From a virus, in IMG/VR virus record IMGVR_UViG_3300037467_001303, positions 40,866 through 104,865 of that record: a DNA stretch of 64,000 nucleotides; one strand, written 5' to 3'. Shown here piece by piece: positions 4,111-50,969 of this stretch. The number at the start of each line of letters is the position of its first letter. Position 1 is the stretch's first letter. The notes under the pieces are model-generated. The model saw nothing but the letters and a program-made list of their open reading frames with translations, did no database searches and had not been told where the DNA came from. A program made the translations under genes and the position numbers.

Positions 4111-4191
4111 TCAGAGAAACGGGGTTGCGCAGGCGGCAGCACAGAGAGAAGCAGGAAAGCGGGCAGTACCTATAACCAGCAAGGGGAACAC

Positions 4192-4764
4192 ATGAAGATC
4201 GAGATCATCAGCATCCTGGACCGCAGCGGCTCGATGTCGCACCTGCGCCACGACACCATCAACGGCTACAACGGCTTCCTGTCCGAGCAGAGGACCGTGC
4301 CCGGCCAGGCGCGCGCGACCCTGGTCCTGTTCGACGACAAGATCGACACCCTGTACGAGGGTGTCAACATCGCGCACCTGGGCAACCTGACCAGCGTGCA
4401 CTACGAGCCGAACGGCACCACGGCGGTCTGGGACGCGATCTGCCGCACCCTGCTGCGCCAGCGCGCGCGCATCACCGCCGAAGGCTGGGCCGACAAGGTG
4501 ATCGTCAACGTCGTCACCGACGACGGCGACAACGCCAGCAAGGACTTCACCGAGGCCAAGACCCGCGCCCTGCGCCGCGAGGTCGAGCAGGAGAACGGCT
4601 GGATCGTGCGCTACGACGCCTGCGGCAAGAAGGCAGAGCTGGGCGGCCAGAACCTGGGCATCGACCCGAAGTACCTGCGCACCTTCGCCGGCAACGCGCA
4701 GGGCGTGGCCGACACCTACGCGACCATGAGCGCGTTCGCCACCAGCGTCCGCACCAGCGCCTGA
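4192..4764 (+). CDS. vWA domain protein
   Basis: MIDAS motif ILDRSGSM, T-A-V-W-D-A-I, VVTDDGDNAS. Confidence 0.88.
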   Translation: MKIEIISILDRSGSMSHLRHDTINGYNGFLSEQRTVPGQARATLVLFDDKIDTLYEGVNIAHLGNLTSVHYEPNGTTAVWDAICRTLLRQRARITAEGWADKVIVNVVTDDGDNASKDFTEAKTRALRREVEQENGWIVRYDACGKKAELGGQNLGIDPKYLRTFAGNAQGVADTYATMSAFATSVRTSA

Positions 4765-13080: not shown

Positions 13081-13102
13081 AAAAGCCGCCCGCAGGCGGC
13101 TC
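13079..13102 (-). terminator. Intrinsic terminator closing the first leftward operon
   Basis: Minus strand AGCCGCC-TGCG-GGCGGC followed by a T run. Confidence 0.75.
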
Positions 13103-14032: not shown

Positions 14033-14485
14033 TTAGTGAAGGTGGTTGCGAAGGACGGGCTGCTGCTTGACAAGGGACGGCTCGAACCCGGAATCCCATG
14101 GCCATCGCCGATTCTTGTCAGGCCACACTAGTTGTAGCGCGGTGTAGTCGGGGAAACGGTGCAGGACGGCATACATGTACTGGTCGGCTTCGCTGCGCGG
14201 CGCCGGTACAAGGCGCGCGGGGAAGCCCTCGGCCACGTCGTCCAGGTCGGTATCGAGCGCCGGTACGCCGCTGTTCGTGAAGCGCCTGCCCATGTCGTTC
14301 AGGAACCTGTGCGCGATCTCCATCGGCAGGCCGAACATGATGATCTCTGGATAGCCCTTCGCGCTCAGGCCGACCGTGTACGAGAATGGCGGGCTGTTAT
14401 CACTGCCGAACACACCCTGTACGGCCCATCCGTACTTGGCGATCATGGCGTCGAATTCGGCTTCGACGGCTTTGCGGTCTTTCAT
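14033..14485 (-). CDS. DUF4262 family protein
   Basis: IAKYGWAVQGV...FSYTVGL...PEIIMFGL...LQLVWPD...WPWD...QPVL. Confidence 0.85.
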   Translation of the reverse strand: MKDRKAVEAEFDAMIAKYGWAVQGVFGSDNSPPFSYTVGLSAKGYPEIIMFGLPMEIAHRFLNDMGRRFTNSGVPALDTDLDDVAEGFPARLVPAPRSEADQYMYAVLHRFPDYTALQLVWPDKNRRWPWDSGFEPSLVKQQPVLRNHLH

Positions 14486-14506: not shown

Positions 14507-14530
14507 AAAAAAGGCAGGCCGAAGCCTGCC
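14507..14530 (-). terminator. Intrinsic terminator inside the leftward operon
   Basis: GGCAGGC-TTCG-GCCTGCC-TTTTTT. Confidence 0.85.
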
Positions 14531-14534
14531 GGGG

Positions 14535-14711
14535 TTACTGTTTCGGTTTCGTTCCCTGTTCGGCCTTGTACGCCTTGTACAGGGGCGAACGGTAGATGGT
14601 GGACAGGGCGATCCCGACCTGCCTGGCGGCAGCGTAGGCCGACAGCGTGCCGCCACTCGCGCGCAGCAGGGCGACGGCCTTGGCGACTTCGGCGGACGGA
14701 CGGCCGCTCAT
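14535..14711 (-). CDS. Small Hin-type helix-turn-helix protein (58 aa)
   Basis: Below the ORF-track cut-off. MSGRPSAEVAKAVALLRASGGTLSAYAAARQVGIALSTIYRSPLYK...; AAGGAG RBS. Confidence 0.8.
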   Translation of the reverse strand: MSGRPSAEVAKAVALLRASGGTLSAYAAARQVGIALSTIYRSPLYKAYKAEQGTKPKQ

Positions 14712-14743
14712 TGCTTGGCTCCTTGCATGGTTCTCTCCTTCGG

Positions 14744-14932
14744 TTACAGGCCCGCTTCGCGCGGGTCGATCAGGTCATACTTGCGCGCCCAGGCGTCAAC
14801 CGTGGCTTCCACAGGCCGGTCGCCGGCATCGCACTCGTACAGTTCGGCCAGCATCAACTCGTCGTCCCAGCACCAGCGGTCGCTGGCGTAGGCCAGGATG
14901 CGCTGGAACAGGTGGTCGGTCGTGTCGTTCAC
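14744..14932 (-). CDS. Hypothetical protein
   Basis: GTG start with AAGGGG RBS; alternative start at 14947. Confidence 0.65.
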   Translation of the reverse strand: MNDTTDHLFQRILAYASDRWCWDDELMLAELYECDAGDRPVEATVDAWARKYDLIDPREAGL

Positions 14933-14943
14933 GTCAGCCCCTT

Positions 14944-15261
14944 TCATTTGTGCAGCAGCCCGTTGCGGTCGCCCGGATCAATCGGCGAAGCGGGATGGTA
15001 GTCGAACAGCTTGGCCCAGGGGATGCTGGCCAGTGCTCCGCGCAGGACCGGCAGGGTCTCGATGCAGCACGCTGCGAGCACCAGCACCGCGCTGGCCAGC
15101 ACCAGCGGCCACGTCCTGCGCCCGGCCTGGACAGCGGTGACGGGCCGGTCGCGCATCCACTGGCGCTCGGCTGCGGTCGCCACCCACGGATCACGCGCCG
15201 GGGTGACGAACCGCCCGTCAGGCTTCGTCACATGGTGACGAACTTCGTCAGGGCGGGTCAT
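14944..15261 (-). CDS. Hypothetical membrane protein
   Basis: GGAG RBS; hydrophobic WPLVLASAVLVLAACCI. Confidence 0.6.
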   Translation of the reverse strand: MTRPDEVRHHVTKPDGRFVTPARDPWVATAAERQWMRDRPVTAVQAGRRTWPLVLASAVLVLAACCIETLPVLRGALASIPWAKLFDYHPASPIDPGDRNGLLHK

Positions 15262-15263
15262 GG

Positions 15264-15680
15264 TCAGGCTCCGTCGTTGGCGGCAGCGGGCGCCATGATG
15301 GCGTCGGCGGTCTTGTCCAGCGCAGCACGCATGCGGCGCGCGAGGTCCTTGTCGTCGCGCACGCGGAAGAACGATTCGACGAGGTCGATCAGAATCTCCA
15401 TCGCGTGCGCGTCATTGGGCAGCCCGTTGTACTCGATGATGCTGTCGCCCAGCCAGTCGCCGAATTCCAGACTGACTTCGTACTCGAACACGCCGGGATA
15501 GTCTTCGCGCACGGCCTCGGCAGCCTCGCGCAGCGCATCAATGCGCGGCACCCATTCCATGGCGGCATCGACCAGCTCGATCATGCCTTGGTCGTACGCC
15601 TTGTAGACCTTGTCCAGGTCGGCCCTGTACAGGCCCTGCATCACGAATGCCGCCGTGATTGCGGTCTGACGCTGATCCAT
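15264..15680 (-). CDS. Hypothetical protein
   Basis: AAGGAG RBS before MDQRQTAIT. Confidence 0.75.
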   Translation of the reverse strand: MDQRQTAITAAFVMQGLYRADLDKVYKAYDQGMIELVDAAMEWVPRIDALREAAEAVREDYPGVFEYEVSLEFGDWLGDSIIEYNGLPNDAHAMEILIDLVESFFRVRDDKDLARRMRAALDKTADAIMAPAAANDGA

Positions 15681-15694
15681 TGCTATCTCCTTGG

Positions 15695-15748
15695 GTTGCC
15701 GGGACAATTCCCGCACCAGCGCCCGCACATGGCAGGCGCTGATACTGG
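15695..15748 (-). repeat. Two-hairpin intergenic element, copy A
   Basis: CCAGT-ATCAGCGCCTGC-CATGT-GCGGGCGCTGGT-G-CGGGA-ATTG-TCCCG-GCAAC, then AGGAG RBS. Confidence 0.85.
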
Positions 15749-15753
15749 CGCTG

Positions 15754-16002
15754 TCACTTGGGACGGGTTTCGTCCTTGTACATGCCGCGCGCCTTGGCCA
15801 GGGCCGCATCGAAGTCGATGCCGAGCCGGTCGCACCAGTGCATGAGATCGGCCAGCAGGTCGCCGAGCACGGTGGCGTTATCCTCTCCGGCCCGCACCAT
15901 GCCGGTCGCATGCGCGAAGGTCATCACGCCCTGCGCGGCCCATCCGGCGCGCTGCTCGTTCATCCCGTCCGGGTCGGGCGGCAGGTTGGAGATCGTGTTC
16001 AT
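15754..16002 (-). CDS. Hypothetical helical protein
   Basis: GGAGG RBS and ATGA overlap; DLLADLMHWCD..IDF motif. Confidence 0.75.
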   Translation of the reverse strand: MNTISNLPPDPDGMNEQRAGWAAQGVMTFAHATGMVRAGEDNATVLGDLLADLMHWCDRLGIDFDAALAKARGMYKDETRPK

Positions 16003-16430
16003 TGCCCGTCCTCCGGTTCGTACTCGATGTCGAAGCCGGCTTGACGGTTCGACACCCACATCCACGCCATCACATAGGCGCCGTCATCGTCGCCCTTCGA
16101 GACGACTGCGGGATTGTCCACCTCGATCTCACCGTCCTTGGCCATGCGCTGCGCTGCGGCCACGTAAGGGCTGTGCTGGGCCAGCTCGGCGAACATCGGC
16201 ACGATGGCCGAGAAGTCCAGGCCGTGGTGGTTCAGGCTATCGCACAGCTCGCTGATGTCGTCGCCCTCCAGCGGTTGCAGCGTGCCGCAGTTGCTGGCAA
16301 TGTCGTTGATGCCTGCTGGCAGATCGCCGAACGCGTCCAGATTCGACTGGTAGAAGCGCAGCGCGGCCAGCACGGTCGCGTGGGCTTCCTGGGTCAGCGC
16401 GTACAGCGCGGGTTTCTTGGTGTCGGACAT
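15999..16430 (-). CDS. Hypothetical protein
   Basis: AAGGAG RBS; ATVLAALRFYQ and GAYVMAWMWV segments. Confidence 0.75.
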   Translation of the reverse strand: MSDTKKPALYALTQEAHATVLAALRFYQSNLDAFGDLPAGINDIASNCGTLQPLEGDDISELCDSLNHHGLDFSAIVPMFAELAQHSPYVAAAQRMAKDGEIEVDNPAVVSKGDDDGAYVMAWMWVSNRQAGFDIEYEPEDGQ

Positions 16431-16432
16431 GG

Positions 16433-16885
16433 TCAGGCTCCTTTCGTGGTGTCAAGTGAAGGGCAGTCGGCAGGCGCGGCAACGCTCCAGCCCCGCGCAC
16501 GCATGATGCGGCCGACGATGTACAGGGTGTAGTGCGGCACGTCGCGGTCGGCGATCCCGATCACGGCGCCACACTCCGGGCAGCAGCCGGCCGGGGCAAG
16601 TTCCCCAGGTAGCACGCGGTCGTGAATGTGGTGGATGTGGTGAATCCCGTTGATCTCGCTCATGGTGCCGGTCCAGTCGCACTCCTCGCACGCGTAGGTG
16701 GTCGGCGTGCCCGGCTTCTGCTTCGGCGCGGCCGGCGGCAGCGGTTCGACCAGGTGCCGGAACAGACCGTACAGCACGTTGTAGTCGTCGCCGGTCGGCG
16801 CACGTTCCTCGGCGCTCAGCCTCGCGTCGTAGTCTTGCATGGCCTTCACCAGCCGCTCCAGCGGGTCCTGCGGTGTCGTTGTCAT
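16433..16885 (-). CDS. Hypothetical Zn-ribbon protein
   Basis: AGGAGG RBS; CEEC...CPEC. Confidence 0.75.
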   Translation of the reverse strand: MTTTPQDPLERLVKAMQDYDARLSAEERAPTGDDYNVLYGLFRHLVEPLPPAAPKQKPGTPTTYACEECDWTGTMSEINGIHHIHHIHDRVLPGELAPAGCCPECGAVIGIADRDVPHYTLYIVGRIMRARGWSVAAPADCPSLDTTKGA

Positions 16886-16901
16886 GGCATCCTCCTGTGA
16901 T

Positions 16902-16948
16902 CGGGACTATTCCCGCGTCAGCGCCCCCTCTGGAGACGCTGACACTGG
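16902..16948 (-). repeat. Two-hairpin intergenic element, copy B
   Basis: CCAGT-GTCAGCGTCTCC-AGA-GGGGGCGCTGAC-G-CGGGA-ATAG-TCCCG, then AGGAGG RBS. Confidence 0.85.
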
Positions 16949-16949
16949 C

Positions 16950-17225
16950 CTAGTCTTCGTAGCGTGTCAGTCCGGGGACCGTGTCGCCGTCGCTGTCAAA
17001 GCGCAGCAGCGCGATGCCCAGGCGTTGTGCGTAGCGCATGACGCCCGCCAGATCGTCGGGCAGGCTGGAAAGACTCTGTTCCATCACGTCCGGCACCGTC
17101 ACGAAAAAGCCGTTCGGATAGGCGCCGATGCTCATGGCGGGCCAATTGTTGTCGCCGCGTTGCATCTTGTCCATGGTGCGCTGTGTCAGGTAGCCTGTAG
17201 ACAGGTCCAGGTAGGTATAGAGCAT
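16950..17225 (-). CDS. DUF5983-like protein
   Basis: LDLSTGYL...YPNGFFV...LPDDL..V.RYA...LRFDSDG pattern; AGGAG RBS. Confidence 0.65.
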   Translation of the reverse strand: MLYTYLDLSTGYLTQRTMDKMQRGDNNWPAMSIGAYPNGFFVTVPDVMEQSLSSLPDDLAGVMRYAQRLGIALLRFDSDGDTVPGLTRYED

Positions 17226-17234
17226 GGCGTTCTC

Positions 17235-17609
17235 CTAGAGTCGGGTTGCCACGCGGGCGTTGGCGCGCAGGATCGTCCAGTGCTCGATCTCGTTGTCGCA
17301 GTAGCGGATGTATGCCGCTTCGCGCTGCGCCTCGTCACTGCCGAACACGGCGAAATCGCGCTCGCTCGGGCCGGTCTGGAGCGCAGCGGCTGTTTCGCAA
17401 TGGTCGTCCACGAACGCAATCAGGCCGTCCCACACGACGCTGTAGTGAGCGTATGGCACGTCCTCGTTAAGGGCGATCTCCAGCAGGTTGCCGTTCAGGG
17501 TCCAGGTGCTGTATTCCTCGGGCTGGACCAGTTCGGCCAGCGCCTCGATAGCGGCCTCATGGCCGGGTTTGATGCGCAGCTCGCCGCGCAGGAACAGATT
17601 GGTGCTCAC
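17235..17609 (-). CDS. Hypothetical protein
   Basis: AGGAGG RBS and GTG start. Confidence 0.75.
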   Translation of the reverse strand: MSTNLFLRGELRIKPGHEAAIEALAELVQPEEYSTWTLNGNLLEIALNEDVPYAHYSVVWDGLIAFVDDHCETAAALQTGPSERDFAVFGSDEAQREAAYIRYCDNEIEHWTILRANARVATRL

Positions 17610-17626
17610 AGTGCCTCCTATAGGTG

Positions 17627-17679
17627 GTTGCCGGGGACTGCCCCCGCGTCAGCGCCCGTTGTCCAGGCGCTGACACTGG
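17627..17679 (-). repeat. Two-hairpin intergenic element, copy C
   Basis: CCAGT-GTCAGCGCCTG-GACAA-CGGGCGCTGAC-G-CGGGG-GCAGT-CCCCG-GCAAC, then AGGAGG RBS. Confidence 0.85.
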
Positions 17680-17680
17680 A

Positions 17681-18067
17681 TCAGTCGTCAGCCTGCTCGA
17701 TCTGCGCCTCGACCCACTGCCAGTAACCGCGCAGGGTGTCGCCCTCGGCCACTTCGTGCCGCCAGTCGCGGCGCAGGTACTGCGGATGCTCGCCGTTGTC
17801 GCGCTCGGTGCTGTACTTCTCCTGTAGCTCGTCGGCGGCCAGCAGGCGGTCGGAGCGCGCCAGCTCGGGCCGGTAGGGCATGCCGTCCGGCGCGCCTTTC
17901 TTGATGTTGAAGTCCCACTCGGACACGGTCGCGTCCGTCATGGCCGTCAGGATGTCGTGTTGCCCGATGTGGTGCGCGGCGGATTCCAGGTTGTGGCCAA
18001 GCTGCGCCGCGTCGGATTCGTCCGCGTCGAAGGTGAAGTTCAGGATCAGGCGTCGTTTGATGAGCAT
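17681..18067 (-). CDS. Hypothetical protein
   Basis: GGAGG RBS; GEHPQY..RDWRHEV..GDTLRGYWQWV motif. Confidence 0.75.
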   Translation of the reverse strand: MLIKRRLILNFTFDADESDAAQLGHNLESAAHHIGQHDILTAMTDATVSEWDFNIKKGAPDGMPYRPELARSDRLLAADELQEKYSTERDNGEHPQYLRRDWRHEVAEGDTLRGYWQWVEAQIEQADD

Positions 18068-18080
18068 GGTCGCCTCCGTC

Positions 18081-18587
18081 TCACAGCAGGCCACATTCGG
18101 CCATCGAGCACGATGCGGCCGCGGTGACGATGATGTGGTCAAGCACGCGCACGTCGATCAGGGCCAGCGCCTGCGACAGCTGGTTGGTCAGCACCTTGTC
18201 GGCCTCGCTCGGTTCGACCTTGCCCGACGGATGATTGTGCGCAAGGATCACGTGGGCGGCGTTGTGGTGCAGCGCGGCCTTGACCACTTCGCGCGGGTAG
18301 ACCCTCGCGCCGGTCAGGTCGCCCCGGAACATTTCCTCGCGCGCGATCAGGCAGTTCTTGGCGTCCAGGAACAGCACCATGAAGACTTCGTGTTCCAGCT
18401 CGCCGGCGTACAGGCGCATGTACTCGCGCACCGCCGACGGACGGGTCAGCAGCTCGCCGGGCTTGCGCATGCGGTTCGAGAGGATCGACAGGGCGCGGCG
18501 GATCGTGGCGTCCTCGCGCTGCCTGCGGGTGTCCGGGCGCGGTTGAACCGGCTCGGTGTGAAGGGTAACGACGTTCGTGCGGGTCAT
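18081..18587 (-). CDS. radC: RadC-family JAB/MPN domain protein
   Basis: [41 protein letters not shown]. Confidence 0.93.
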
Positions 18588-18636
18588 GACAGGCTCCAGA
18601 GTAGGGCGCAGCCACATGGGCCGCGCCGTGGGTTCA

Positions 18637-19008
18637 TCAGGCAGGTTGGGCGGCTTCGTCTTGCAGGCGGTAGTATTCGCGCGCCTCGGCCAGCACCTTG
18701 TCGATCTCCAGCAGTGCCTGCGCATGGGTGTCGCGGATGGCCTTCTCGGTGCCGCGCTTGCCTTGTGCTACCAGCAGCACGCGCGACAGGTCGCCGCCAG
18801 TGCCGCCCAGGTTGAACCGATGCGACCGGAAATGGCCCTCCCGCTTGTGGCCCGTCACGCATGTCGCCACGCCGACCACACGGCCCCGCTGTGTGTGCTT
18901 GCCAGTGCGGAGCACGATCACGCGGCTGTTGCCGATGTCGCACTCGGTCTCTGCTTCCCAATCGGCGTGCAGGGTCTTGCCGATCTTGGTCTGGTGCTGC
19001 TGTTCCAT
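18637..19008 (-). CDS. Hypothetical protein (first gene of leftward operon 1)
   Basis: AGGAGG RBS. Confidence 0.75.
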
Positions 19009-19067
19009 GATGCCCTCCTATGGTTGAGTGATTGACGGACAGTGCGGGCGCACAAGCCCACGAACAC

Positions 19068-19096
19068 AGTATATAGCATGATGCTACATAAGTACA
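19068..19096 (-). promoter_or_regulatory. Leftward promoter with a palindromic operator in the spacer
   Basis: Minus strand TGTACT, 17-bp spacer, TATACT; the spacer contains TAGCAT-G-ATGCTA (19074-19086); locally AT-rich. Confidence 0.6.
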
Positions 19097-24456: not shown

Positions 24457-24710
24457 TCGGTGCGTTCTCCTGGTCCATAAGGCCACGGCAGCGTTTCGAC
24501 GGTGTAGCCGCAGCCGGCCTTGCAGCACCAGTGGCCCGGATGGGCGTGCAGCTCGGTCAGCTGCCACCAGCCCAGGTCGTGCCGGCAGCAGGCGCGGCAG
24601 ATCGTGCTGTGGTTCTCGTCGTACATGTACACGCCCGCTCCCTTGCAGGTCGGGCAATCGGGCCGCGCATTCTCTGCCGCGTGCCGGAACACGTTGGTCA
24701 ATTGTGGCAC
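24453..24710 (-). CDS. Cys-rich hypothetical protein
   Basis: CPTC, CRACC, CCKAGC; start may be TTG at 24701. Confidence 0.65.
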   Translation of the reverse strand: MPQLTNVFRHAAENARPDCPTCKGAGVYMYDENHSTICRACCRHDLGWWQLTELHAHPGHWCCKAGCGYTVETLPWPYGPGERTE

Positions 24711-25162
24711 TCCGGGTCCAGCAGATGGCGCAGCTGTCGATAGTCGCCCAGGCTCACGCCGAAGTCGGGGTTGGTCTGGACGAAGCGCGCCGCCAGCTCG
24801 GGATGCCCGTCGCAGATCGCCACGTCATCGACGATGGCGAAGGTCGTCACCTCCGGGTGCCGGGCGAGCCAGGCCGCGATCTCCGTGCCCCGTGTGTCGT
24901 AGCCGCCATGGTCCGGCGTCTCGTCGATCACCGGCAGGTCCAGCGCCTCGGCGACAACGCCGGGACGGTGGTAGATGCGCCAGGTCGACGACAGCACGAT
25001 CACCGCCCCGGTCACGCGGCACACGCGGCGGATCAGGCCGAGGGCGACGTGGTCGAACCTGGCCATGTCGGCTTCCGAGAAGTCGTGCGGATAGCCGCCC
25101 AGCGCAAGGCTGCTGCGCTCGCTGTTGACCACGCCATCAATATCAAAGAACAGCACCTTCAT
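24698..25162 (-). CDS. HAD-family phosphatase (Swiss-army-knife RNA-repair-like HAD)
   Basis: FFDIDGVVN, IVLSSTWR, RGTEIAAWL, FAIVDD. Confidence 0.85.
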   Translation of the reverse strand: MKVLFFDIDGVVNSERSSLALGGYPHDFSEADMARFDHVALGLIRRVCRVTGAVIVLSSTWRIYHRPGVVAEALDLPVIDETPDHGGYDTRGTEIAAWLARHPEVTTFAIVDDVAICDGHPELAARFVQTNPDFGVSLGDYRQLRHLLDPECHN

Positions 25163-26751
25163 GCTTGGCCCTCGGTCTTCTGCATGCGGTCGGTGAAGTC
25201 CTGCACGCTGCGGTAGAACACTGCGCCGCTCTCGACGCTGCGGTAGACCACCACTTCGGGCAGATCCCGGCTGGTGCCTGCACCCCTGGCGATCCCGGCC
25301 AGCTCGTAGTTCCCGCCCTTGCCGATGCAGGTGTAGAACTCGCCGGTGACGGTATTGAGCCGTCGGGCGATTTCCTCGGCATGGGCGCGTTCGCGCTCCA
25401 CCGAGCCGAAGTCGCCGCTGATTTCCAGCGACACGTCGTGCGTGAAGTCGTCGGACTGGATCACGATGCGGCCCTGGCCCCAGTCGTTGACCTGCCACGG
25501 ACCCTTTTCCGTGACTGTCACGGATTCGCGCTCCAGCGCTGCGCGCAGCTTCGGCAGCGCCTTCTCGGCTTCCTTGTACGCCTGGCCATCGTCGCCCTGC
25601 AGGATGTCGTCGAGCCGGTTGATCGCCACCCGCAGCGCGTCAATTCCCCCGAATTCGCGGGAATTGGCCAGCCCACTGCCGCCGCACGCCTTGCAGGTGT
25701 CGTCGCCACCAGGCGGCACCGGCGAAGTCTTGATGCCCTGGCCGACGCATTCCTTGCACCAGTCGCCCAGCATGGCCTGCGCTTCCGCATCGGCAGCAGC
25801 GTGGCCAGCTGGATCGGCGCGGCGCGAGGCGGCCTCGTAGATCGCGCCGTCGCCCGGGGCGTCTTCCTGATCGAGGCTGGCCAGAATCTTGCGGATGTCC
25901 TGGGCATAGACTTTTGCCACCGCATGGCTTACCCCGCCGAACTCGAACCGGCCGGCCAGGAATTCGAGCATGCCGCGCGCCGTCGTTGCCACAGGATCGT
26001 TGCAGCCGCAGTCGCAGTCCTTCCTGATCCTGGCCTCGGCCGCCGGACTGGCCGCCATCCGTTCGCGCAGCTCGATGCACTCCTGCGACTTCGCCGTAGC
26101 CCTGGCTTCGGCCCGGTCGGCGCGCAGCGTCTCGGCAGCAAGCCGGCGGTGCAGCGCGATGATCTCCTCGTCGGCCGTGATCGCGGTTCCCCAGCAGGTC
26201 CTGTTGATCTCGGCCTCGATCTCGGCATGGGTCCGCTCCGGGTAGGCCCGCACCATGTTGACGTGGAAGGCGGCGCGCAACTGGCGCAGCCTGGCCAGCA
26301 CCGCCTCGGACACGAACATCGGCGGCACCCGCTCGTCGATCAGCCCCGCCTCGACCAGCTCCTGGCGAACCATGTCCATGCAGTCGGCCATGCCCTGCAG
26401 CGCCAGGCGCTCCGTATCGACCTCCGGGCGGTCCAGCAGCCGCGCGAAGGAGCGGTCAAACGCTTCCAGTTCGTGCTGCCAGTACGCGGCCGAATCGTGG
26501 TTGCGCCGTTCCGTCTCGGCGTTGATGCACTCCGTGATCGCGTCCCGCCATGCCGAGCGGTGCGTCGTGAAGTTCGCCGGGATGTACTGCTGCGCCGGAT
26601 CGCCGGCGCGGGCCTGCTCCACCAGCGGCTTGAGCGCGGCACGCGCGTCCGCCGGCAGGATCTGCTCCCACTCGTCGTAGTAGTGCACCAGTTGCCGGTC
26701 GCGGCTCATGCCCCCGCCAGCGCCTTGTTCTGTTTCTTTTTGGATATCCAT
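25159..26751 (-). CDS. Mosaic multidomain protein with C-terminal DUF1653-like segment
   Basis: Long ORF with typical codon bias; CKEC/CKAC; KGGNY...VVVYRS....FYR....F at the C-terminus; alternative start 26709. Confidence 0.7.
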   Translation of the reverse strand: MDIQKETEQGAGGGMSRDRQLVHYYDEWEQILPADARAALKPLVEQARAGDPAQQYIPANFTTHRSAWRDAITECINAETERRNHDSAAYWQHELEAFDRSFARLLDRPEVDTERLALQGMADCMDMVRQELVEAGLIDERVPPMFVSEAVLARLRQLRAAFHVNMVRAYPERTHAEIEAEINRTCWGTAITADEEIIALHRRLAAETLRADRAEARATAKSQECIELRERMAASPAAEARIRKDCDCGCNDPVATTARGMLEFLAGRFEFGGVSHAVAKVYAQDIRKILASLDQEDAPGDGAIYEAASRRADPAGHAAADAEAQAMLGDWCKECVGQGIKTSPVPPGGDDTCKACGGSGLANSREFGGIDALRVAINRLDDILQGDDGQAYKEAEKALPKLRAALERESVTVTEKGPWQVNDWGQGRIVIQSDDFTHDVSLEISGDFGSVERERAHAEEIARRLNTVTGEFYTCIGKGGNYELAGIARGAGTSRDLPEVVVYRSVESGAVFYRSVQDFTDRMQKTEGQA

Positions 26752-30192: not shown

Positions 30193-33100
30193 ATGGACGA
30201 CCAGACCCCAACCCCGAATCCGACCGACTGGGTCGGCCTGGCGCGTGACGCCTACAGTGCGTCCTCGAACTGGTTCGACAGTTCCGTGCGCGCGCAGGTC
30301 GAGGGAGACCTGCGCCAGTTCCAGGGCCAGCACCCGACCGGCAGTAAATACCTGGCCGAGGCCAACAAGGGCAGGTCGAAACTGTTCCGGCCCAAGACCC
30401 GCACCACGATCAGGAAAAACGAGGCCGCCGCAGCACAGGCCTTCTTCGCCTCCAACGATGTCGTCACCGTCACCGCCGAGGATGCCGACAGCGCCGAGCA
30501 CGAGGCCGCCGCCGCCGTCATGGGCGAGCTGCTGCAGTACCGCCTGACCAAGTCCATTCCGTGGTTCCTGACCCTGGTCGGCGCCTACCAGGACGCCCAG
30601 ACCGTGGGCGTGGTGGCCAGCTACCAGTATTGGGAATACAACGAGGCCAAGGGCATCGACCGCCCCGCGATCCGCCTGATCCCGGTCGAGAACCTGCGCC
30701 TGGACCCCGGCGCCGACTGGACCGACCCAATCAACACCAGCCCTTACGTGATCGAGCTGATCCCGATGTACGTCAAGGACGTGAAGGCGCGCATGCGCAA
30801 CGTCGATCCCAAGACCGGCGAGCCGAAGTGGAACCAGCTGCCGGAAGCGACCATCATGGGCGCCACCAAGACCTACGGCGACACCATCCGCCTGCAGCGC
30901 GAGGCACCGCGCCCGGACAGCAAGTACCAGCAGCAGGCCAACAACAATTACTCGGTGGTCTGGGTCCACAAGAACATCGTCGAGGTCGAGGGCGTCGACT
31001 ACTGCTACTACACGCTGGGCTGCGAACACCTGCTGTCCGACCCGGTGCCGCTGAAGGACATGTATTTCCACGGCCGCCGCCCGTACGCCATGGGCTGCGC
31101 CGTGCTCGAAGCGCACAAGCTCTATCCGTCGTCGGTGCCGCGCCTGACCCGCGACGTGCAGGCCGAGATCAACGAAGTGGCCAACCAGCGCATCGACAAC
31201 GTCAAGCTGGCCATGAACAAGCGGTACTTTGCGCGCCGCAATAAACAGGTCGACCTGCGCAGCGTGACCCGGAACGTGCCCGGCTCGGTGACGCTGGTGC
31301 AGGACATCGACGACGTGAAGGTCGTCGAGTTCAACGACGTGACCGGCTCCAGCTACAAGGAACAGGAAGTCCTGAACCTGGACTTCGACGACGTGGCCGG
31401 CACCTTCTCCGGCTCGTCGGTCCAGTCCAACAGGAAGCTGAACGAGACGGTGGGCGGCATGCAGATGCTCGACGCCGGCGCCAACCAGGTCTCCGGCTAC
31501 CAGCTGCGCACCTTCGTCGAAACCTGGGTCGAGCCGGTGCTGCGCCAGCTGGTGCTGCTGGAGCAGTATTACGAGACCGACGACACGGTGCTGGCCCTGT
31601 GCGGCAAGAGCGCGCAGCTGTTCGAGCGCTTCGGCATCGACCAGATCACCGACGAAGCCCTGATGGGCGAACTGACCCTGAACGTCAACGTCGGCATGGG
31701 CGCCGTCAACCCGGCCGACCAGGTGCGCCAGTTCGTCGACGCCATGAACGCGCTGGGCAACATGCTGGCCAACGGTTCGCTGGTGAACCTGGGCCTGAAC
31801 ATCGAAGAGGTCGTCAAGGAGCTGTTCGGCAAGCTCGGCTACAAGAACGGCGCGCGCTTCTTCAAGATGGACGGCACCGACCCGATGGTCAAGCAGCTGC
31901 AGCAGCAGATCGAGCAGCTGAACCAGCAGCTGGCGCAGAAGGCCGACCCGGCCCTGATCGCGGCCCAGATCCGCAGGATCGACGCCGAAGTCGCCAGCAT
32001 GGCCGTCAAGGACCGGGTCGCCACCGCCGACGCCGTGAAAAAGGGTTCGGAGGCGCAGTTCTCGGCCATGCAGACCGCCGAGGTGATCGCCGCGGTGCCG
32101 GACGTGGCGCCGATCGCCGACGAACTGATGAAGGCCGCCGGCTACCGCCCGCCGACGCCTGGCGGCGTCGACCCGAACTTCCCGATGCCGGGCGCACCCG
32201 CCGCCGGCCTCGGGCTGGAAGCGGTCAAGAACCGCCGCACCGGGGTCGGCTTCATGCCCGGTGGCGGATCGACCACCCTGAATCCCCTGCCGTCGATGCC
32301 CCCGACGGCAGGGACGGGAGCACACGCCGGCATCGAGACCACCCGCCCGGATTCGCTTGGCGCCAACCTGATCGCCCAGGCCGCCTACGCCAACGGCGGC
32401 CTGCTGCCGTCCTACGCCGCCGACGAGCGCGCCGACCAGATGGACCGGATGCGGATCGAGGCCGACAACGCGCGCCTCTACCGCGCCGAGCTGGGCGGCA
32501 GGGTCCCGGACCCGATCTCGAACCAGTTGAACGGTTTTACCAGCGACACCAACGAGGACCTGACCGGCCGCTCGCGCCTGCCGTACCCGCAAGGTGAGGG
32601 TTATGCCGACGGCGGCCTGGTCGACGCGCCCAATCCATTGCAACAGGCCTGGAACGGTGGCGTGGCGGCGCTGAGCAGCAGCGCCCGCCAGGTCGCCAGC
32701 CTGCCGGGCCGCGCCCTGGACCGCTACGACCAGCTCTCGAACGCCTACCCGAAGACCAAGCTGGCACTCGATGTGCTGCCGGGCACGAACGTCGCCACCT
32801 CGGCGCTGGACGTGGCCAGCGACCTGCACAAGGGCGACATCGCGGCCGCCGCCGGTGACGCGATCGGCCTGCTGCCGGGCTACAAGCTGCTCAAGGCACC
32901 GATGCACACGCCAATCCAGCGCGGCCTGGCCAAGCTGTCCAGGAACGCCCCGACGCTCGACACCGCGATCAACGCCATCCCGGAATACGCCCAGAAGGTC
33001 TACGGCCAGCAGCAGCCGCCAGGCTACGCCGACGGTGGCCTGATCCAGGGTCCGGGCACCGGCACCTCCGACTCGATCCCGGCCACCATCGACGGCCAGC

Positions 33101-33342
33101 AGCCGGCCCAGGTCTCGGACGGCGAGTACCTCGTCCCGGCCAACGTGGTCCAGGCCATCGGACAGGACTTCTTCGAGCACCTGGTGCAGCAGCTGCACAC
33201 CCCGGTCCCGGGCGAACCCGGCCCGGTGGCCGATGTCGACCCGGTCGGCATGAACGGCGGCGACTTCGTGGTCCCCGCCGATGTCGTCGCCCAGCTGGGC
33301 CGCGACTACTTCGACAAACTCGTCCAGGACTACGGCGCATGA
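30193..33342 (+). CDS. Portal protein with long C-terminal extension
   Basis: SKLFRPKTR, QAEINEVANQRIDNVKL, LNETVGGM, LRTFVETWVEPVLRQLV; sits upstream of scaffold and capsid. Confidence 0.88.
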   Translation: MDDQTPTPNPTDWVGLARDAYSASSNWFDSSVRAQVEGDLRQFQGQHPTGSKYLAEANKGRSKLFRPKTRTTIRKNEAAAAQAFFASNDVVTVTAEDADSAEHEAAAAVMGELLQYRLTKSIPWFLTLVGAYQDAQTVGVVASYQYWEYNEAKGIDRPAIRLIPVENLRLDPGADWTDPINTSPYVIELIPMYVKDVKARMRNVDPKTGEPKWNQLPEATIMGATKTYGDTIRLQREAPRPDSKYQQQANNNYSVVWVHKNIVEVEGVDYCYYTLGCEHLLSDPVPLKDMYFHGRRPYAMGCAVLEAHKLYPSSVPRLTRDVQAEINEVANQRIDNVKLAMNKRYFARRNKQVDLRSVTRNVPGSVTLVQDIDDVKVVEFNDVTGSSYKEQEVLNLDFDDVAGTFSGSSVQSNRKLNETVGGMQMLDAGANQVSGYQLRTFVETWVEPVLRQLVLLEQYYETDDTVLALCGKSAQLFERFGIDQITDEALMGELTLNVNVGMGAVNPADQVRQFVDAMNALGNMLANGSLVNLGLNIEEVVKELFGKLGYKNGARFFKMDGTDPMVKQLQQQIEQLNQQLAQKADPALIAAQIRRIDAEVASMAVKDRVATADAVKKGSEAQFSAMQTAEVIAAVPDVAPIADELMKAAGYRPPTPGGVDPNFPMPGAPAAGLGLEAVKNRRTGVGFMPGGGSTTLNPLPSMPPTAGTGAHAGIETTRPDSLGANLIAQAAYANGGLLPSYAADERADQMDRMRIEADNARLYRAELGGRVPDPISNQLNGFTSDTNEDLTGRSRLPYPQGEGYADGGLVDAPNPLQQAWNGGVAALSSSARQVASLPGRALDRYDQLSNAYPKTKLALDVLPGTNVATSALDVASDLHKGDIAAAAGDAIGLLPGYKLLKAPMHTPIQRGLAKLSRNAPTLDTAINAIPEYAQKVYGQQQPPGYADGGLIQGPGTGTSDSIPATIDGQQPAQVSDGEYLVPANVVQAIGQDFFEHLVQQLHTPVPGEPGPVADVDPVGMNGGDFVVPADVVAQLGRDYFDKLVQDYGA

Positions 33343-46488: not shown

Positions 46489-48810
46489 ATGAGCTGCTCA
46501 TTCTCTGTCAACTTTTCCCAGCTGCCGGCCGCGCCGGCGCCGCCGCCGATCCCGGACCTGCCGGCCCTGCCGCCCCTGCCCGACCTGTCCTTGATCGAGC
46601 CGTTCGAGCCGCTCCCGGCGCCGACCGACCTGCCCGACGCGCCCACTGCGCCGACCCTGCCGGACTACCAGCTGCAGCCGATCCCCGATGCAAACTGGGG
46701 CACCGGCGATGCCCCCGGCGTCGTGGCGAATGTGATGACGAGCACTGGCCGACTGGCCTCGGTGAGCATGTCGGCCGCGATGACCTATCTGGTGTCGCTG
46801 GCGGACCTGGCCAACGGGTTCACGCCGATCACGGCGCCATTGCACCCCGGCACCGATGTCGACCTGCCGGACGCGGTCGAAGCACCAGCCGGGTTCGACC
46901 TGGCCCCGGCGTTCCCGCCGCTGCCCGAGGCCCCGGCAACCGCCACGCCGACCCCGTTCGTGATGCCCGAGGTGCCCGCCTACGACGCCGGCGAGCTGAC
47001 CCTGGCCGACCTGGCGCTGCCCGACCCGGCAACGATCCTGTTGCCGGCCGCCCCGGACCTGCTGCCGGTCTCGGCGCCGCCGCCGCCCGACTTCATCCTG
47101 CCACCCGCGCCGACGCTGGCCGAGCTGGTCATCCCCGACCCGCCGGTGCTCACCCTGCCGCTGTTCGAGGCCGAGCTGGGCGCGCGCCCGGACCTGCCGA
47201 CGGTCGCATTCGCCTACGATGAGGTGGCCTACCAGTCCCAGCTGCTCACCGAAATGACCTCGGCGCTGGCCGGCCTCATCATGGACGAGCACGCCACCGG
47301 CCTGCGCCCCGATGTCGAAGAGGCCATCTGGAGCCGCGCCGCCTCCCGCGAAGCCCGCCTGACCGCGCGCGCCACCGGCGAAGCGGCGCGCGTGCTGCAG
47401 GCGCGCGGGTTCGCCATGCCGGCCGCGACCCTGGACCGCATGGTGCAGCAGGCGCTGTCCGGCGGCCTGACCCGCGCCAGCGGCTTTGCCCGCGCCGTCG
47501 CCGTCGAGCGCGCCCAGCTGGCCCAGCAGAACCTGCGCTTCGCGCTGGAGAGCACGATCGCGCTGGAGTCGCGCCTGATCGACAAGCACAACGCCACCCA
47601 GGCCCGCGCGCTGGACGCGGCCAAGGCCATGCTGGCCCACGAGATCGCCATCTTCAACGCCCAGGTCAAACTGATGCAGGCCGACGTGGCCGCGTTCGCC
47701 ATGAAGGCCGAGGTGTTCAAGGTCCGGCTCACCAGCGCCCTCGCGCAAATCTCGGTGTTCCGCGCCCAGATCGAGGCCCAGATCGCGCGCGGCGAGGTCA
47801 ACGCCCAGAAAATCGCCATCTACCAGGCCCAGATCGGCGGCGTGCGCGTGATCGCCGACACCTACCGCAGCCAGGTCGAGGCGGCGCGCGAACTGACCGA
47901 CGCCAACAAGGCGCGCGCCGACCAGTACCAGGCCCGGATCTCGGCGTACCAGGCCGAAGTGACGGCCAAGCAGAGCGAGTACGAGGCCTTCGGCGGCGCC
48001 GTGCGCGCCCAGGTCGAACGCGCCCACATGTTCGAGAAGCAGGTGGCCAGCTACCGTTCCAAGGTCGGCGCGTTCGACGCCCTGGTGAAAGCCAAGGTCG
48101 GGGTGCTGGACCTGCAGCTCAAGCAGACCGGCGACTACCCGCTGGAGATGTTTCGCGCCAGGATCGACGCCTACCGCGGCGCCAGCGAAGCGACCGTCGA
48201 GCAGCTGCGCTCGTCCGCCAGCGTGTACGGCGCCAAGATCCGCGCCTATGTCGCGTCCGAGTCGGTCAAGACCGAGCTGGCCGACGCCAAGGTACGGGTG
48301 GCCCAGGCCAACGCCGAGCGGGCGCTGGCCGACGCGACTGCGCTGCTCGACGCCGGCCGCGCCAACCTGGCCAGCGCCGAAGCCTACGCCGCGACGGTCC
48401 AGAACAACGTGCGCACCGCCGGCCAGCTCGCAGGCCAGATCGCGGCGGCCGCCGTTGCCGCCCAGAGCGTGCACGCCTCGATCTCCGAGAGCGGCAGCAT
48501 GGGCGTGTCGAACAGCCACGGCGAATCGAGCAGCCACTCGGACAGCCAGGCCGCCGTCAACTCGACCAGCACCAGCAGCAGCCTCAACACCAGCTTCACG
48601 CAGATCTCGGGCAGCACCTCCAACAACGTGGTCTCCAACAGCTCCGGGCGCCACCGCAACAAGGGCACGAGCAAGTCCGAATCCGTCGCCTACAGCAACA
48701 CCACCGGCAATTCGATGACCTCGCACTTCACCAACTCGATCACGTCGAGCCTGTCCGACAACTTCTCGGAGTCGAGGGAGTGCATCGACCGCACCGTCCA
48801 CTCCGACTGA
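46489..48810 (+). CDS. Virion or ejection protein (Pro-rich, coiled-coil, Ser-rich), paralogue 1
   Basis: VEEAIWSRA...ARGFAMP; KAEVFKVRL; Ser-rich C-terminus. Confidence 0.8.
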   Translation: MSCSFSVNFSQLPAAPAPPPIPDLPALPPLPDLSLIEPFEPLPAPTDLPDAPTAPTLPDYQLQPIPDANWGTGDAPGVVANVMTSTGRLASVSMSAAMTYLVSLADLANGFTPITAPLHPGTDVDLPDAVEAPAGFDLAPAFPPLPEAPATATPTPFVMPEVPAYDAGELTLADLALPDPATILLPAAPDLLPVSAPPPPDFILPPAPTLAELVIPDPPVLTLPLFEAELGARPDLPTVAFAYDEVAYQSQLLTEMTSALAGLIMDEHATGLRPDVEEAIWSRAASREARLTARATGEAARVLQARGFAMPAATLDRMVQQALSGGLTRASGFARAVAVERAQLAQQNLRFALESTIALESRLIDKHNATQARALDAAKAMLAHEIAIFNAQVKLMQADVAAFAMKAEVFKVRLTSALAQISVFRAQIEAQIARGEVNAQKIAIYQAQIGGVRVIADTYRSQVEAARELTDANKARADQYQARISAYQAEVTAKQSEYEAFGGAVRAQVERAHMFEKQVASYRSKVGAFDALVKAKVGVLDLQLKQTGDYPLEMFRARIDAYRGASEATVEQLRSSASVYGAKIRAYVASESVKTELADAKVRVAQANAERALADATALLDAGRANLASAEAYAATVQNNVRTAGQLAGQIAAAAVAAQSVHASISESGSMGVSNSHGESSSHSDSQAAVNSTSTSSSLNTSFTQISGSTSNNVVSNSSGRHRNKGTSKSESVAYSNTTGNSMTSHFTNSITSSLSDNFSESRECIDRTVHSD

Positions 48811-48820
48811 AGGGCGCACC

Positions 48821-50953
48821 ATGACCAACGTTCCAGAACCGACCGAGATCAAGCTTGCGAGCGGGCTTGTCACCACCGTCCTGGGCGAGTCGCAGGCGCT
48901 GGCCAACCTGGCGCAGACCGGCGGCATCGCCGCGATCGAGGCGCTGGCCACGCTCGACATCGAGATCCCGCCGATCGTTCCGCCCGACATCGACATCCCG
49001 GCGATCGCCGTGGCGCCGTCCGCCGCACTGCCGCAGGAGCCGGCCCTGGCGCTGCAGATGCCGGAGCTGCCGCAGGCGCCGGACGCGCCGGCCGCCGCCA
49101 GCCTGGACGTGGGCACGCCGCCCGCCTACGACCTGGTGCCGCCGCTTCTCATCGACGTGCCGCTGCCCGACCCGTTCGATGCGCTGGTGCCCGACGCGCC
49201 GGTGCTCGACGACGTGCAGGCGCCGGTCGAACCGGATTTCACCCTGCCGGCCGTGCCCGACCTGGTGTCCCTGAACCTGCCCGACGCGCCCACCTACGAG
49301 GTGCCGACCTTCGCCGGCGAGGCGCCGACCGCGCCCATGGTGCCGGACCTGCAGTTCACCTGGAACGAAATCGAGTACCACAGCGAGCTGCTGGCCAGCG
49401 TCAACAACCGCCTGCTGACGTTCGTGCAGGGCGGGTTCTCGGCGCTGCCCGAGGAGGTCGAGCAGCGGATCTGGGACAAGGCCGTCGACGACGAGGTGGC
49501 CGCCACCTGGAGCGCGACCGACGCCGCAGCCCAGCAGGTCGCCGCGCGCGGTTTCAATTTGCCCGGCGGGGAACTGCTGCGCCTGGTGCAGGCGGCGCTG
49601 GACGCCGGCCTGAAACAGGACGTGCAGGCCAGCCGCGAGACCATGGTGGCGCAGGCCCGCATGCAGCAGGCCAATTTCGCCTTCGCGTTCTCGAACGCGA
49701 TGCAGCTGGAAACCCAGCTCATCAACCTGTTCAACCAGGTCCGGCAGCGCGCGCTCGACGCCGCGAAATACCGCGTCGAGTCAAGCATGCAGCTGTTCGA
49801 TGCGCGGGTGATGCTGTACCAGGCGGACGTGCAGGCCTTCGGCGCCAAGGCCGAGGTGTTCAAGGCCCGCCTGCAGGCGGTGCTGGCCCAGCTCGACGTG
49901 TACAAGGCCGAGCTGGAAGCGGTGAAGGCACGCGGCCAGCTCAACCTCCAGCTGGCCCAGCAGTATGCGGCCCAGGTCGACAGCCTGAAAGTGATCGCCG
50001 ACGTGTACCGCGCGCGCGTGTCCGCCGTCAGCCTGGCCGTGGCCAACAACAAGAACCGCACCGAACTGTATAAAAGCGCGATCGACGGCGCCGCCGCGCA
50101 GGCCAAGGGCGCCGCCCTGGCCGTGCAGGGCTACCTGGCCCAGGTACAGCAGGAATCCGGCAAGGCCGACCTGTTCGCCGCCCGCGTGGCCGGGTACGCC
50201 AGCCAGGTCGAGGCGTTCCGGGTACTGGCCGACGGCAAGCTGTCCGAAGCGGGCATGAATTTCCGCCAGCTGCAGCAGTTCCCGCTGGAACTCTACAAGA
50301 GCCAGATCGCGGCCGCGCAGGCCGCGACCCGCGCCGAGAGCACGCGCCTGAGCGCGACCGCCGAGCTGTTCAACAGCCGGGTCGACGCCTATGCGGCCCA
50401 GCAGCGCGTGATCAACAAGCAGGCCACCACCAAGGGCGAGGTCGAGAACCTGGAAACCCGTGTCTACGCCAGCCGCGCCCAGCTGGCCATCAATGCCGCC
50501 TCGATCACCCAGCGCCTGGAGCAGGCGCGCACCGATACCGCCCAGGCCTCGCTGCGCGCCGCGGCGCAGCTGTCGTCGCAGCTGGCCTCGGCCGCGATGA
50601 GTGCGCGCAACGTCTCGGCCTCGATGTCGGGCAGCGTCAGCAATTCGGGCAGCTACAGCGTCTCGAACACCACTGCCAAGTCGACCAGCAACAGCAGCTC
50701 GATCTCGGTCTCGAACGCGACCAACTTCTCGGCCGGGACCTCGGACACCCGCGGCGGCGTGTCCAGCTACAACACCAGCCAGACCTACAGCGACAACGAG
50801 ACCGTCAGCGAGTCGGTCAACCACTCCACCTCCGAAGTGGTCTCGCACTCGTCGATGTACGACAGCCGCGTCGACAACCGCAATACCCGCTCGTACGGCG
50901 TCAGCAAGCGCAACGAAGCGACCACGCAGGACATCTACAACCACAAAGCGTAA
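48821..50953 (+). CDS. Virion or ejection protein (Pro-rich, coiled-coil, Ser-rich), paralogue 2
   Basis: VEQRIWDKA...ARGFNLP; KAEVFKARL; Ser-rich C-terminus. Confidence 0.8.
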   Translation: MTNVPEPTEIKLASGLVTTVLGESQALANLAQTGGIAAIEALATLDIEIPPIVPPDIDIPAIAVAPSAALPQEPALALQMPELPQAPDAPAAASLDVGTPPAYDLVPPLLIDVPLPDPFDALVPDAPVLDDVQAPVEPDFTLPAVPDLVSLNLPDAPTYEVPTFAGEAPTAPMVPDLQFTWNEIEYHSELLASVNNRLLTFVQGGFSALPEEVEQRIWDKAVDDEVAATWSATDAAAQQVAARGFNLPGGELLRLVQAALDAGLKQDVQASRETMVAQARMQQANFAFAFSNAMQLETQLINLFNQVRQRALDAAKYRVESSMQLFDARVMLYQADVQAFGAKAEVFKARLQAVLAQLDVYKAELEAVKARGQLNLQLAQQYAAQVDSLKVIADVYRARVSAVSLAVANNKNRTELYKSAIDGAAAQAKGAALAVQGYLAQVQQESGKADLFAARVAGYASQVEAFRVLADGKLSEAGMNFRQLQQFPLELYKSQIAAAQAATRAESTRLSATAELFNSRVDAYAAQQRVINKQATTKGEVENLETRVYASRAQLAINAASITQRLEQARTDTAQASLRAAAQLSSQLASAAMSARNVSASMSGSVSNSGSYSVSNTTAKSTSNSSSISVSNATNFSAGTSDTRGGVSSYNTSQTYSDNETVSESVNHSTSEVVSHSSMYDSRVDNRNTRSYGVSKRNEATTQDIYNHKA

Positions 50954-50969
50954 CCCGAGGACCACGACC

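Follow-up and report, generated by a model that had tools for sequence, protein, structure and literature searches.

Elements that lie between phage genes or act on phage transcripts have been described in several systems. In T7, RNase III cleaves the 7-kb early mRNA at five places between cistrons (PMC4858673). Cluster K mycobacteriophages carry repeated intergenic motifs of unknown function, SAS and ESAS, which are conserved across related phages (PMC3203893). The put RNA of HK022 is about 70 nt long, with long stems that contain bulges, non-canonical pairs and a triplex, and there is one such RNA per early promoter, close to the promoter (PMC9378689). In T4-type phages, the conserved short intergenic motifs known as PeSLs flank variable small open reading frames (ORFs) and coincide with module exchange (PMC2839356, PMC4122927). 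Here we describe a two-hairpin RNA element that occurs three times in an operon of a tailed phage. The stretch of DNA analyzed, hereafter the window, is the final 64 kb of IMG/VR record IMGVR_UViG_3300037467_001303 (104,865 bp, 67.5% GC, rated complete by CheckV).

A two-helix RNA element and its family

The first-pass annotation of the window had reported three minus-strand copies of the element, each between a stop codon and a ribosome-binding site. All three were located at those places (copies A to C in Table 1); only the end of copy B, given as 16902, had to be moved, as this copy runs to about 16897. Each copy has the same layout, namely a stop codon, 1 to 5 nt, CCAGU, a GC-rich hairpin of 13 to 14 bp (stem 1), a short hairpin of the form CGGGR/YCCCG (stem 2), a C/A-rich leader, a Shine-Dalgarno sequence (SD) and a start codon. 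In the whole record a strict pattern had three matches, all on the reverse strand and none on the forward one; its reversed control matched nowhere. The window copies scored 66 to 74 bits with a covariance model (E values of 1e-15 to 1e-17). Their minus-strand RNA folded at -30.6 to -34.8 kcal/mol, with z scores of -3.6 to -5.3, whereas the plus-strand RNA folded more weakly, at -20.4 to -28.6 kcal/mol and z scores of -1.1 to -1.9. In copies B and C the minimum free energy structure represents 63 to 77% of the ensemble, and a bistable or alternative fold was rejected on these grounds.

IMG/VR was scanned with patterns, and true homologues were picked out from among chance matches. A covariance model built from 15 copies, the kind of search that the first-pass annotation had advised, gave 45 copies from 18 sources; two further loci added 3, for a total of 48 in about 20 contigs of a single phage clade, with 1 to 5 copies per phage. 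All copies lie in one operon, on the gene (sense) strand, clustered within 3 to 4 kb. They scored 38 to 76 bits, compared with at most 33 bits for the mirror strand. Among 80 loci from a metagenome scan, only 2 held true copies, both from the same phage clade. A scan of bacterial genome contigs with an over-wide gap pattern yielded 16 matches, all due to chance (at most 26 bits), which does not establish that the element is absent from bacterial genomes. A 14-kb region was also compared with Rfam 15 at E values up to 10, again as had been advised, and no described family matched at the copies. Taken together, a new RNA family, absent from Rfam and familiar in class, is strongly supported.

The structure of stem 1 is supported by covariation. 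In a MAFFT alignment of the element 98.8% of cells pair. Among the 41 distinct copies, 8 of the 12 pairs of stem 1 show compensatory changes and 96% of stem 1 cells are paired, against 38 to 52% in slid controls. RNAalifold independently predicted the same two helices, with seven covarying pairs. The pairing-preserving differences first noticed between the three window copies are thus upheld across the 48-copy family. Stem 1 contains two near-invariant U-G wobbles, one basal and one near its top, both of which become A-C mismatches on the opposite strand, in agreement with the earlier remark that the wobbles pair on the coding strand only. In 39 of the 41 copies the sense RNA folded more stably than the mirror RNA (-30.2 versus -23.8 kcal/mol).

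Several details of the initial description were revised. Stem 1, a hairpin as proposed, is longer than the 11 to 12 bp first assigned to it: RNAfold and RNAalifold give 13 to 14 bp in the window, and across the family it measures 11 to 22 bp (median, 13), and most copies lack an internal loop. In 12 of the 41 copies the stem has a C x C mismatch. The G thought to be the single unpaired base between the stems pairs with the U of CCAGU, as a U-G pair in 42 of 45 copies, and the G that precedes this partner pairs with the first C of stem 2 according to both RNAfold and RNAalifold. The two helices therefore abut without a free junction base. The second hairpin was correctly recognized, but its 5 bp become 4 once the preceding G pairs with its first C; across the family it comprises 4 to 5 bp. 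The GCAAC reported to follow it is not general, the general feature being a C/A-rich leader. The core of the element is 45 to 53 nt long in 40 of the 41 distinct copies and 67 nt in the remaining one, which has an extended stem 1.

The apical loop of stem 1 varies from 3 to more than 25 nt, and it takes insertions of 23 to 25 nt that lengthen the helix, up to 22 bp in the case of contig L137 (Table 1). As this loop is free to vary, recognition must involve the base of the helix together with the junction and stem 2. The constrained parts are CCAG, the lower and middle portions of stem 1, the junction and stem 2. Within them, the invariant core consists of the single-stranded CCAG, the basal U-G, a GCGCC/GGCGC segment and the GGG/CCC hairpin, with a conserved G in loop 2. 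Pairwise nucleotide identity is 0.77 to 0.86 in the element and 0.46 to 0.73 in its flanks, and orthologous flanking proteins are 34 to 67% identical in most pairs. By these sequence measures, the element appears to be under purifying selection as an RNA with a sequence-specific reader.

The compensatory pairs, the near-invariant U-G wobbles and the better folding of the sense strand indicate that the element is an RNA structure rather than a DNA operator. A double-stranded operator for a dimeric repressor was rejected for further reasons: the arms differ within one genome and nevertheless remain self-complementary, the loops range from 3 to more than 25 nt, the wobbles are strand specific, and an operator-like inverted repeat sits at the promoter of the operon instead. 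No copy contains a sigma-70 promoter-like site or an intrinsic terminator, a T run being absent from all of them. A hammerhead ribozyme was considered in view of a CUGA upstream and discarded, as both GAAA and the three-way core are lacking. A selenocysteine insertion sequence or another read-through signal was discarded as well, since the stops include TAG and TAA and the element lies in different frames relative to them (gaps of 1, 2, 5, 6 and 7 nt). Finally, an RNA anti-CRISPR mimic was considered; the likeness to type I-C repeats is only vague, and the stems of the element are far longer.

Placement of the element and organization of the operon

All 45 copies examined have the stop codon of an ORF of at least 50 codons 1 to 7 nt before CCAGU, the gap being most often 1 or 5 nt. 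Stem 1 thus begins 5 to 11 nt past the stop, which would place it at about the leading edge of the terminating ribosome, just outside it. On the other side, a start codon with an SD follows stem 2 by 16 to 31 nt in 44 of the 45 copies. The position of the element is thus fixed more closely relative to the stop before it than to the start after it. Among 32 upstream genes from seven unrelated families, 19 have GAC as their final sense codon, compared with 10 of 173 other genes, indicating that the conserved unit extends into the stop context.

The element-bearing transcript looks like an early accessory operon of about 6 kb, anti-defense in appearance. Its promoter is followed by four gene modules split by the elements, an intrinsic terminator, the DUF4262 ORF with other ORFs, and a final terminator (Table 1; ORF calls of the modules were based on GC content at third codon positions). 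Inside a module, neighboring genes either overlap or are separated by at most 15 nt, the sole long gaps being the element sites. Each related phage has exactly one such promoter site, heading the element-bearing operon 0.7 to 1.9 kb upstream of the first copy. Its inverted repeat is likely an operator for an autoregulator, and a candidate for this role is the 58-aa helix-turn-helix (HTH)-like ORF at the end of module 4, in an acr-aca-like layout. The HTH_7 match of this ORF is weak (E = 0.006, below the cut-off). The hairpin of the primary 5' untranslated region (UTR), with the C/A-rich leader and SD after it, is present in every relative checked, and the 3' half of the element, made of a small GC hairpin, a C/A leader and an SD, mirrors this layout. 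The terminator cited in the first-pass annotation is real, and the C/A-rich leader and SD layout comes next after it.

Ahead of the Zn-ribbon gene and of ORF family F7 the position is conserved, and the genes between elements vary among phages. The flanking genes had been suspected to vary as cassettes, and module content indeed differs between phages. One phage has an extra module that brings its own element copy, and copy number follows the number of gene modules. An element variant identical down to its loop was found before different genes (families F14 in contigs L111 and L116 and F12 in L114 and L115), and gene families F12, F14, F6 and F18 occur both with and without the element. Homology detected by blastn ends within 30 nt of the element, typically just outside it, in 15% of cases versus 7% expected, in comparisons that are not phylogenetically independent. 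Neighboring copies share derived arm changes within a lineage; together with the recurrent C x C mismatch, which resembles partial conversion, these changes suggest conversion between neighboring copies. Most copies are positional orthologues in conserved synteny, and module exchange at the element is likely a by-product.

Two observations on the operon may be added. DUF5983 (YeeT-like) and RadC/JAB occur together in it; the same holds for the accessory regions that cryptic prophages and integrative elements carry. In addition, a simple hairpin that is unrelated to the element occupies the 49-nt gap between the first ORF and the RadC gene.

The virus is a tailed phage, whose proteins include a helicase, a primase, the large terminase (TerL), a portal-like protein and a head-closure protein. 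Its TerL is about 26% identical to that of phages of the VpV262/SIO1 type. Elsewhere in the window, a giant ORF has an InPase domain as its sole Pfam match, suggestive of a protein of the polyvalent type, and a protein with a glucosaminidase domain is encoded upstream of it. Two adjacent large paralogues each match phrog_10969, of unknown function, with E values of about 1e-80. The C-terminal 100 or so residues of the portal-like protein match tape-measure and endolysin PHROGs, and an extra domain thus appears to be fused to the portal. Another ORF matches HAD_SAK_2 (E = 2e-24), the HAD domain found in RNA repair proteins of the "Swiss Army Knife" kind.

Table 1. Positions of the element copies, operon features and other genes mentioned in the text (window coordinates unless a contig is named)
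Feature	Position	Strand	Description
Element copy A	17627-17681	-	Follows the stop of ORF 17681-18067 and precedes ORF 17235-17609 (GTG start); covariance model, 65.8 bits; sense RNA fold, -34.5 kcal/mol; 1 nt from stop to CCAGU
Element copy B	16896-16950	-	Between DUF5983 ORF 16950-17225 and Zn-ribbon ORF 16433-16885; 74.1 bits; -30.6 kcal/mol, z = -5.3; 1 nt from stop to CCAGU
Element copy C	15694-15750	-	Between ORF 15754-16002 and ORF 15264-15680; 71.3 bits; -34.8 kcal/mol; 5 nt from stop to CCAGU
Copies with loop insertions (23-25 nt)	L137:6465-6539; L245:2916-2990, 4125-4199		In related contigs
Operon promoter	19044-19090	-	Extended -10 TGcTATATA in perfect inverted repeat
Inverted repeat TATAGCAT-c-ATGCTATA	19070-19090	-	Overlaps the extended -10
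5' hairpin GGGC-N6-GCCC	19044-19061	-	Directly after the promoter; then C/A-rich leader and SD
Module 1	17681-19008	-	ORF 18637-19008, RadC/JAB 18081-18587 (Pfam, E = 1e-43), ORF 17681-18067
Simple 9-bp hairpin GGCGCGGCC / GGCUGCGCC	~18611-18633	-	Between the first ORF and RadC
Module 2	16950-17609	-	ORF 17235-17609 and DUF5983 ORF 16950-17225 (E = 5e-17), 9 nt apart
Module 3	15754-16885	-	Zn-ribbon ORF 16433-16885, ORF 15999-16430, ORF 15754-16002; overlapping or 2 nt apart
Module 4	14535-15680	-	ORFs 15264-15680, 14944-15261, 14744-14932, HTH-like ORF 14535-14711
Intrinsic terminator	14507-14530	-	After the HTH-like ORF; 7-bp stem at 14530-14513, then T run
DUF4262 ORF	14033-14485	-	Downstream of the first terminator, with other ORFs
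Terminal intrinsic terminator	13083-13102	-	End of the minus-strand gene block
HAD_SAK_2 domain protein	24698-25498	-
Portal-like protein	30193-33342	+	1,049 aa
phrog_10969 paralogues	46489-48810; 48821-50953	+	Adjacent
Glucosaminidase domain protein	50601-53882		1,093 aa
Giant ORF	53886-63998	+	>3,371 aa; runs past the record end

Possible functions of the element

Three functions had been offered for the element in the first-pass annotation. An RNA processing or stabilizing role fits its anatomy best, a recombination module can be retained as a secondary property, and an antiterminator resembling HK022 put was not borne out. We tentatively favor an intercistronic processing and stabilizing signal that has a specific recognition core and is analogous to the T7 RNase III sites. 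According to this proposal, a cis-acting structure of the sense-strand RNA would punctuate the polycistronic mRNA at the borders of translationally coupled modules, and a specific factor would read CCAG, the basal U-G, GCGCC/GGCGC and the GGG/CCC second hairpin. The most economical factor would be the host RNase III, acting on a coaxial stack of both helices of 17 to 19 bp; another endoribonuclease or an RNA-binding protein might take its place. The message would be cut at or beside the stem junction. Stem 1, which is very stable, would thus close the upstream segment as a 3' cap against exonucleases, and the downstream segment would open with stem 2, the C/A-rich leader and the SD, in the layout seen where the primary transcript begins. 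In this way each module would be stabilized separately and have its translation initiated de novo, and as a by-product the roughly 55 nt of conserved DNA would offer a patch of homology for module swaps between related phages. Processing explains more of the observations than any rival, since it accounts for the position at module borders, the copy number, the stable hairpin upstream, the hairpin resembling a 5' end downstream, the strand specificity and the free loop.

Four points weigh against this reading. Stem 1 by itself, with its median of 13 bp and mostly without an internal loop, falls short of the two turns of helix that RNase III sites typically have, and the assumption of coaxial stacking is therefore needed. 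The invariant CCAG and the sequence of stem 2 are superfluous for a generic stabilizer and fit a specific binder at least as well. The only pair change seen in stem 2 is A-U to G-U, never a compensatory change on both sides, so that its helix is deduced from conservation. Lastly, neither DNA nor TerL searches found a cultured relative of the phage.

The main rival, which we regard as possible but unlikely, is a translational operator or standby site, at which a trans-acting RNA-binding protein would switch whole modules. The binder could be phage encoded, for instance the Zn-ribbon protein, whose gene always follows one copy. The same invariant core, including the G of loop 2, suggests a specific binder, and at 16 to 31 nt every copy is within reach of the 30S footprint on an SD-bearing start. 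Tight coupling inside the modules means that one operator could govern a module, and both the Zn-ribbon ORF and ORF 15264-15680 nearly always have a copy immediately upstream. However, the distance to the start is loose and that to the stop tighter, pointing to anchoring upstream, and the occurrence of F12, F14, F6 and F18 with or without the element shows no tie to particular downstream genes. Predicted SD accessibility did not change in silico, at 0.54 with the element, 0.53 without it and 0.52 with a shuffled one, and an insulator that keeps the SD open was rejected on the same result. The Zn-ribbon protein has an invariant CxxC...CxxC, and its AlphaFold model, of low confidence (pLDDT of 65), yields no functional hint.

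Somewhat less probable still is what may be called a cassette joint, that is, a portable unit that would supply GAC-TGA to the upstream gene and a protected leader and ribosome-binding site to the downstream one, and that a dedicated factor would read, letting anti-defense genes be swapped and still be expressed. This would amount to an integron-like economy without an integrase in a virulent-type phage. If true, anti-defense genes would be exchanged between phages by recombination at the element and remain correctly expressed.

The view that the element is primarily a DNA-level recombination module, with cassette swapping as its raison d'être and the RNA role secondary, as in comparisons with PeSLs or attC sites, appears improbable. 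The varying module content, the same variants before different genes and the roughly twofold excess of homology ends near the element fit such exchange as a secondary property. The unit also seems to carry its own stop context, as the GAC bias suggests, and the shared changes of neighboring copies point the same way. As a sole explanation it fails, since sequence identity suffices for homologous recombination and the covariation, the U-G pairs, the strand asymmetry and the placement between stop and SD are left unexplained. Moreover, the conserved synteny of most copies speaks against it, the breakpoint comparisons lack independence, and neither attC-type R''/R' core sites nor PeSL-like sigma-70-type hexamers are present at the element.

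We consider it comparably improbable that the element is a put-like RNA, in which the nascent two-hairpin transcript would bind RNA polymerase and suppress pausing or termination, for example at the terminator stem at 14530-14513. The adjacent hairpins and the invariant junction G loosely recall HK022 put, whose length of about 70 nt and bulged stems (PMC9378689) differ from the 47 to 55 nt, the perfect stems and the second hairpin of 4 to 5 bp found here. A canonical terminator does lie downstream of the last copy, with more genes beyond it, and the untranslated location permits the RNA to fold. Nevertheless, the first copy lies 0.7 to 1.9 kb from the promoter and there are 1 to 5 copies, which does not match put either. 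Antitermination predicts neither that copy number follows modules nor that an inserted module brings its own copy, and no terminator-like site was found between copies.

The weakest proposal is a signal of folded single-stranded DNA, either a priming (ssi-like) site or an N4-type hairpin promoter. Although the hairpins also fold as DNA (z scores of -2.6 to -4.4) and DNA hairpins tolerate G-T wobbles, it is very improbable, as the wobbles favor the non-template strand, the stems measure 11 to 22 bp, the exact stop-to-SD placement in all 45 copies is not predicted, and no T7- or N4-type polymerase was found among the proteins scanned, the giant ORF showing only its InPase domain. N4-type promoters are small template-strand hairpins with a stem of 5 to 7 bp and a 3-nt loop.

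The element adds to the known structured RNAs a well-supported family of about 48 copies, with strong covariation, from a phage clade without a cultured member. It also reveals an operon grammar, consisting of an operator-bearing promoter, a 5' hairpin, element-separated modules, an HTH-like gene and a terminator, in an early, anti-defense-like setting. Should the element prove to be a processing or stabilizing signal that a specific factor reads, it would illustrate the way in which phages of high-GC hosts adjust the expression of accessory genes relative to one another. It might also be of use as a compact insulating spacer between the genes of synthetic operons. That an RNA punctuation mark coincides with the points of module exchange is a link of note.

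Comparison with known systems

A PeSL combines an early sigma-70 promoter with a terminator-like stem-loop, whereas the element has no promoter hexamers and no U tract. In integron attC sites, R'' (RYYYAAC) and R' (GTTRRRY) close the folded strand; the CCAGU of the element has no complementary partner past stem 2. HK022 put shares with the element two adjacent stem-loops and a G at the bifurcation, and it acts from nascent early RNA (PMC9378689). It differs in size, stem irregularity, position relative to the promoter and copy number. Its suppression of terminators in cis operates through the beta-prime zinc-binding domain.

The closest described motif of unknown function is ESAS. Like the element, the SAS/ESAS motifs have a single orientation and lie just upstream of starts, and their imperfect inverted repeat, whose spacer varies in length, is analogous in layout (PMC3203893). 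SAS, together with which ESAS is defined, is a 13-bp sequence that includes the ribosome-binding site just before the start, whereas the element has only a generic SD at a variable distance, with differing leaders. ESAS, with which the element was compared by description, consists of 17-bp imperfect inverted repeats with a 4- to 13-bp spacer; the arms of the element measure 12 to 14 bp and its loop 3 to 5 nt. The SAS/ESAS motifs are found at many genes genome-wide; the element is confined to one operon, and its covariation and wobbles point to RNA.

Among the systems nearest to the element are the T7 RNase III signals R0.3, R0.5, R1, R1.1 and R1.3 and likewise the Bs-RNase III sites of SP82/SPO1 early RNA. 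In T7, as here, several similar hairpins occupy the gaps between cistrons in an early operon that the host polymerase transcribes; they delimit mono- to tetracistronic segments, are strand specific and have conserved sequence around the helix base (PMC4858673). The T7 signals show no sequence or Rfam relationship to the element. They also extend over about two helical turns, usually with an internal loop at the cut, whereas stem 1 is shorter and mostly perfect, and the helix of the element reaches 17 to 19 bp only if its two stems stack coaxially. To this shared plan the element adds an obligatory second hairpin of 4 to 5 bp and an invariant single-stranded CCAG.

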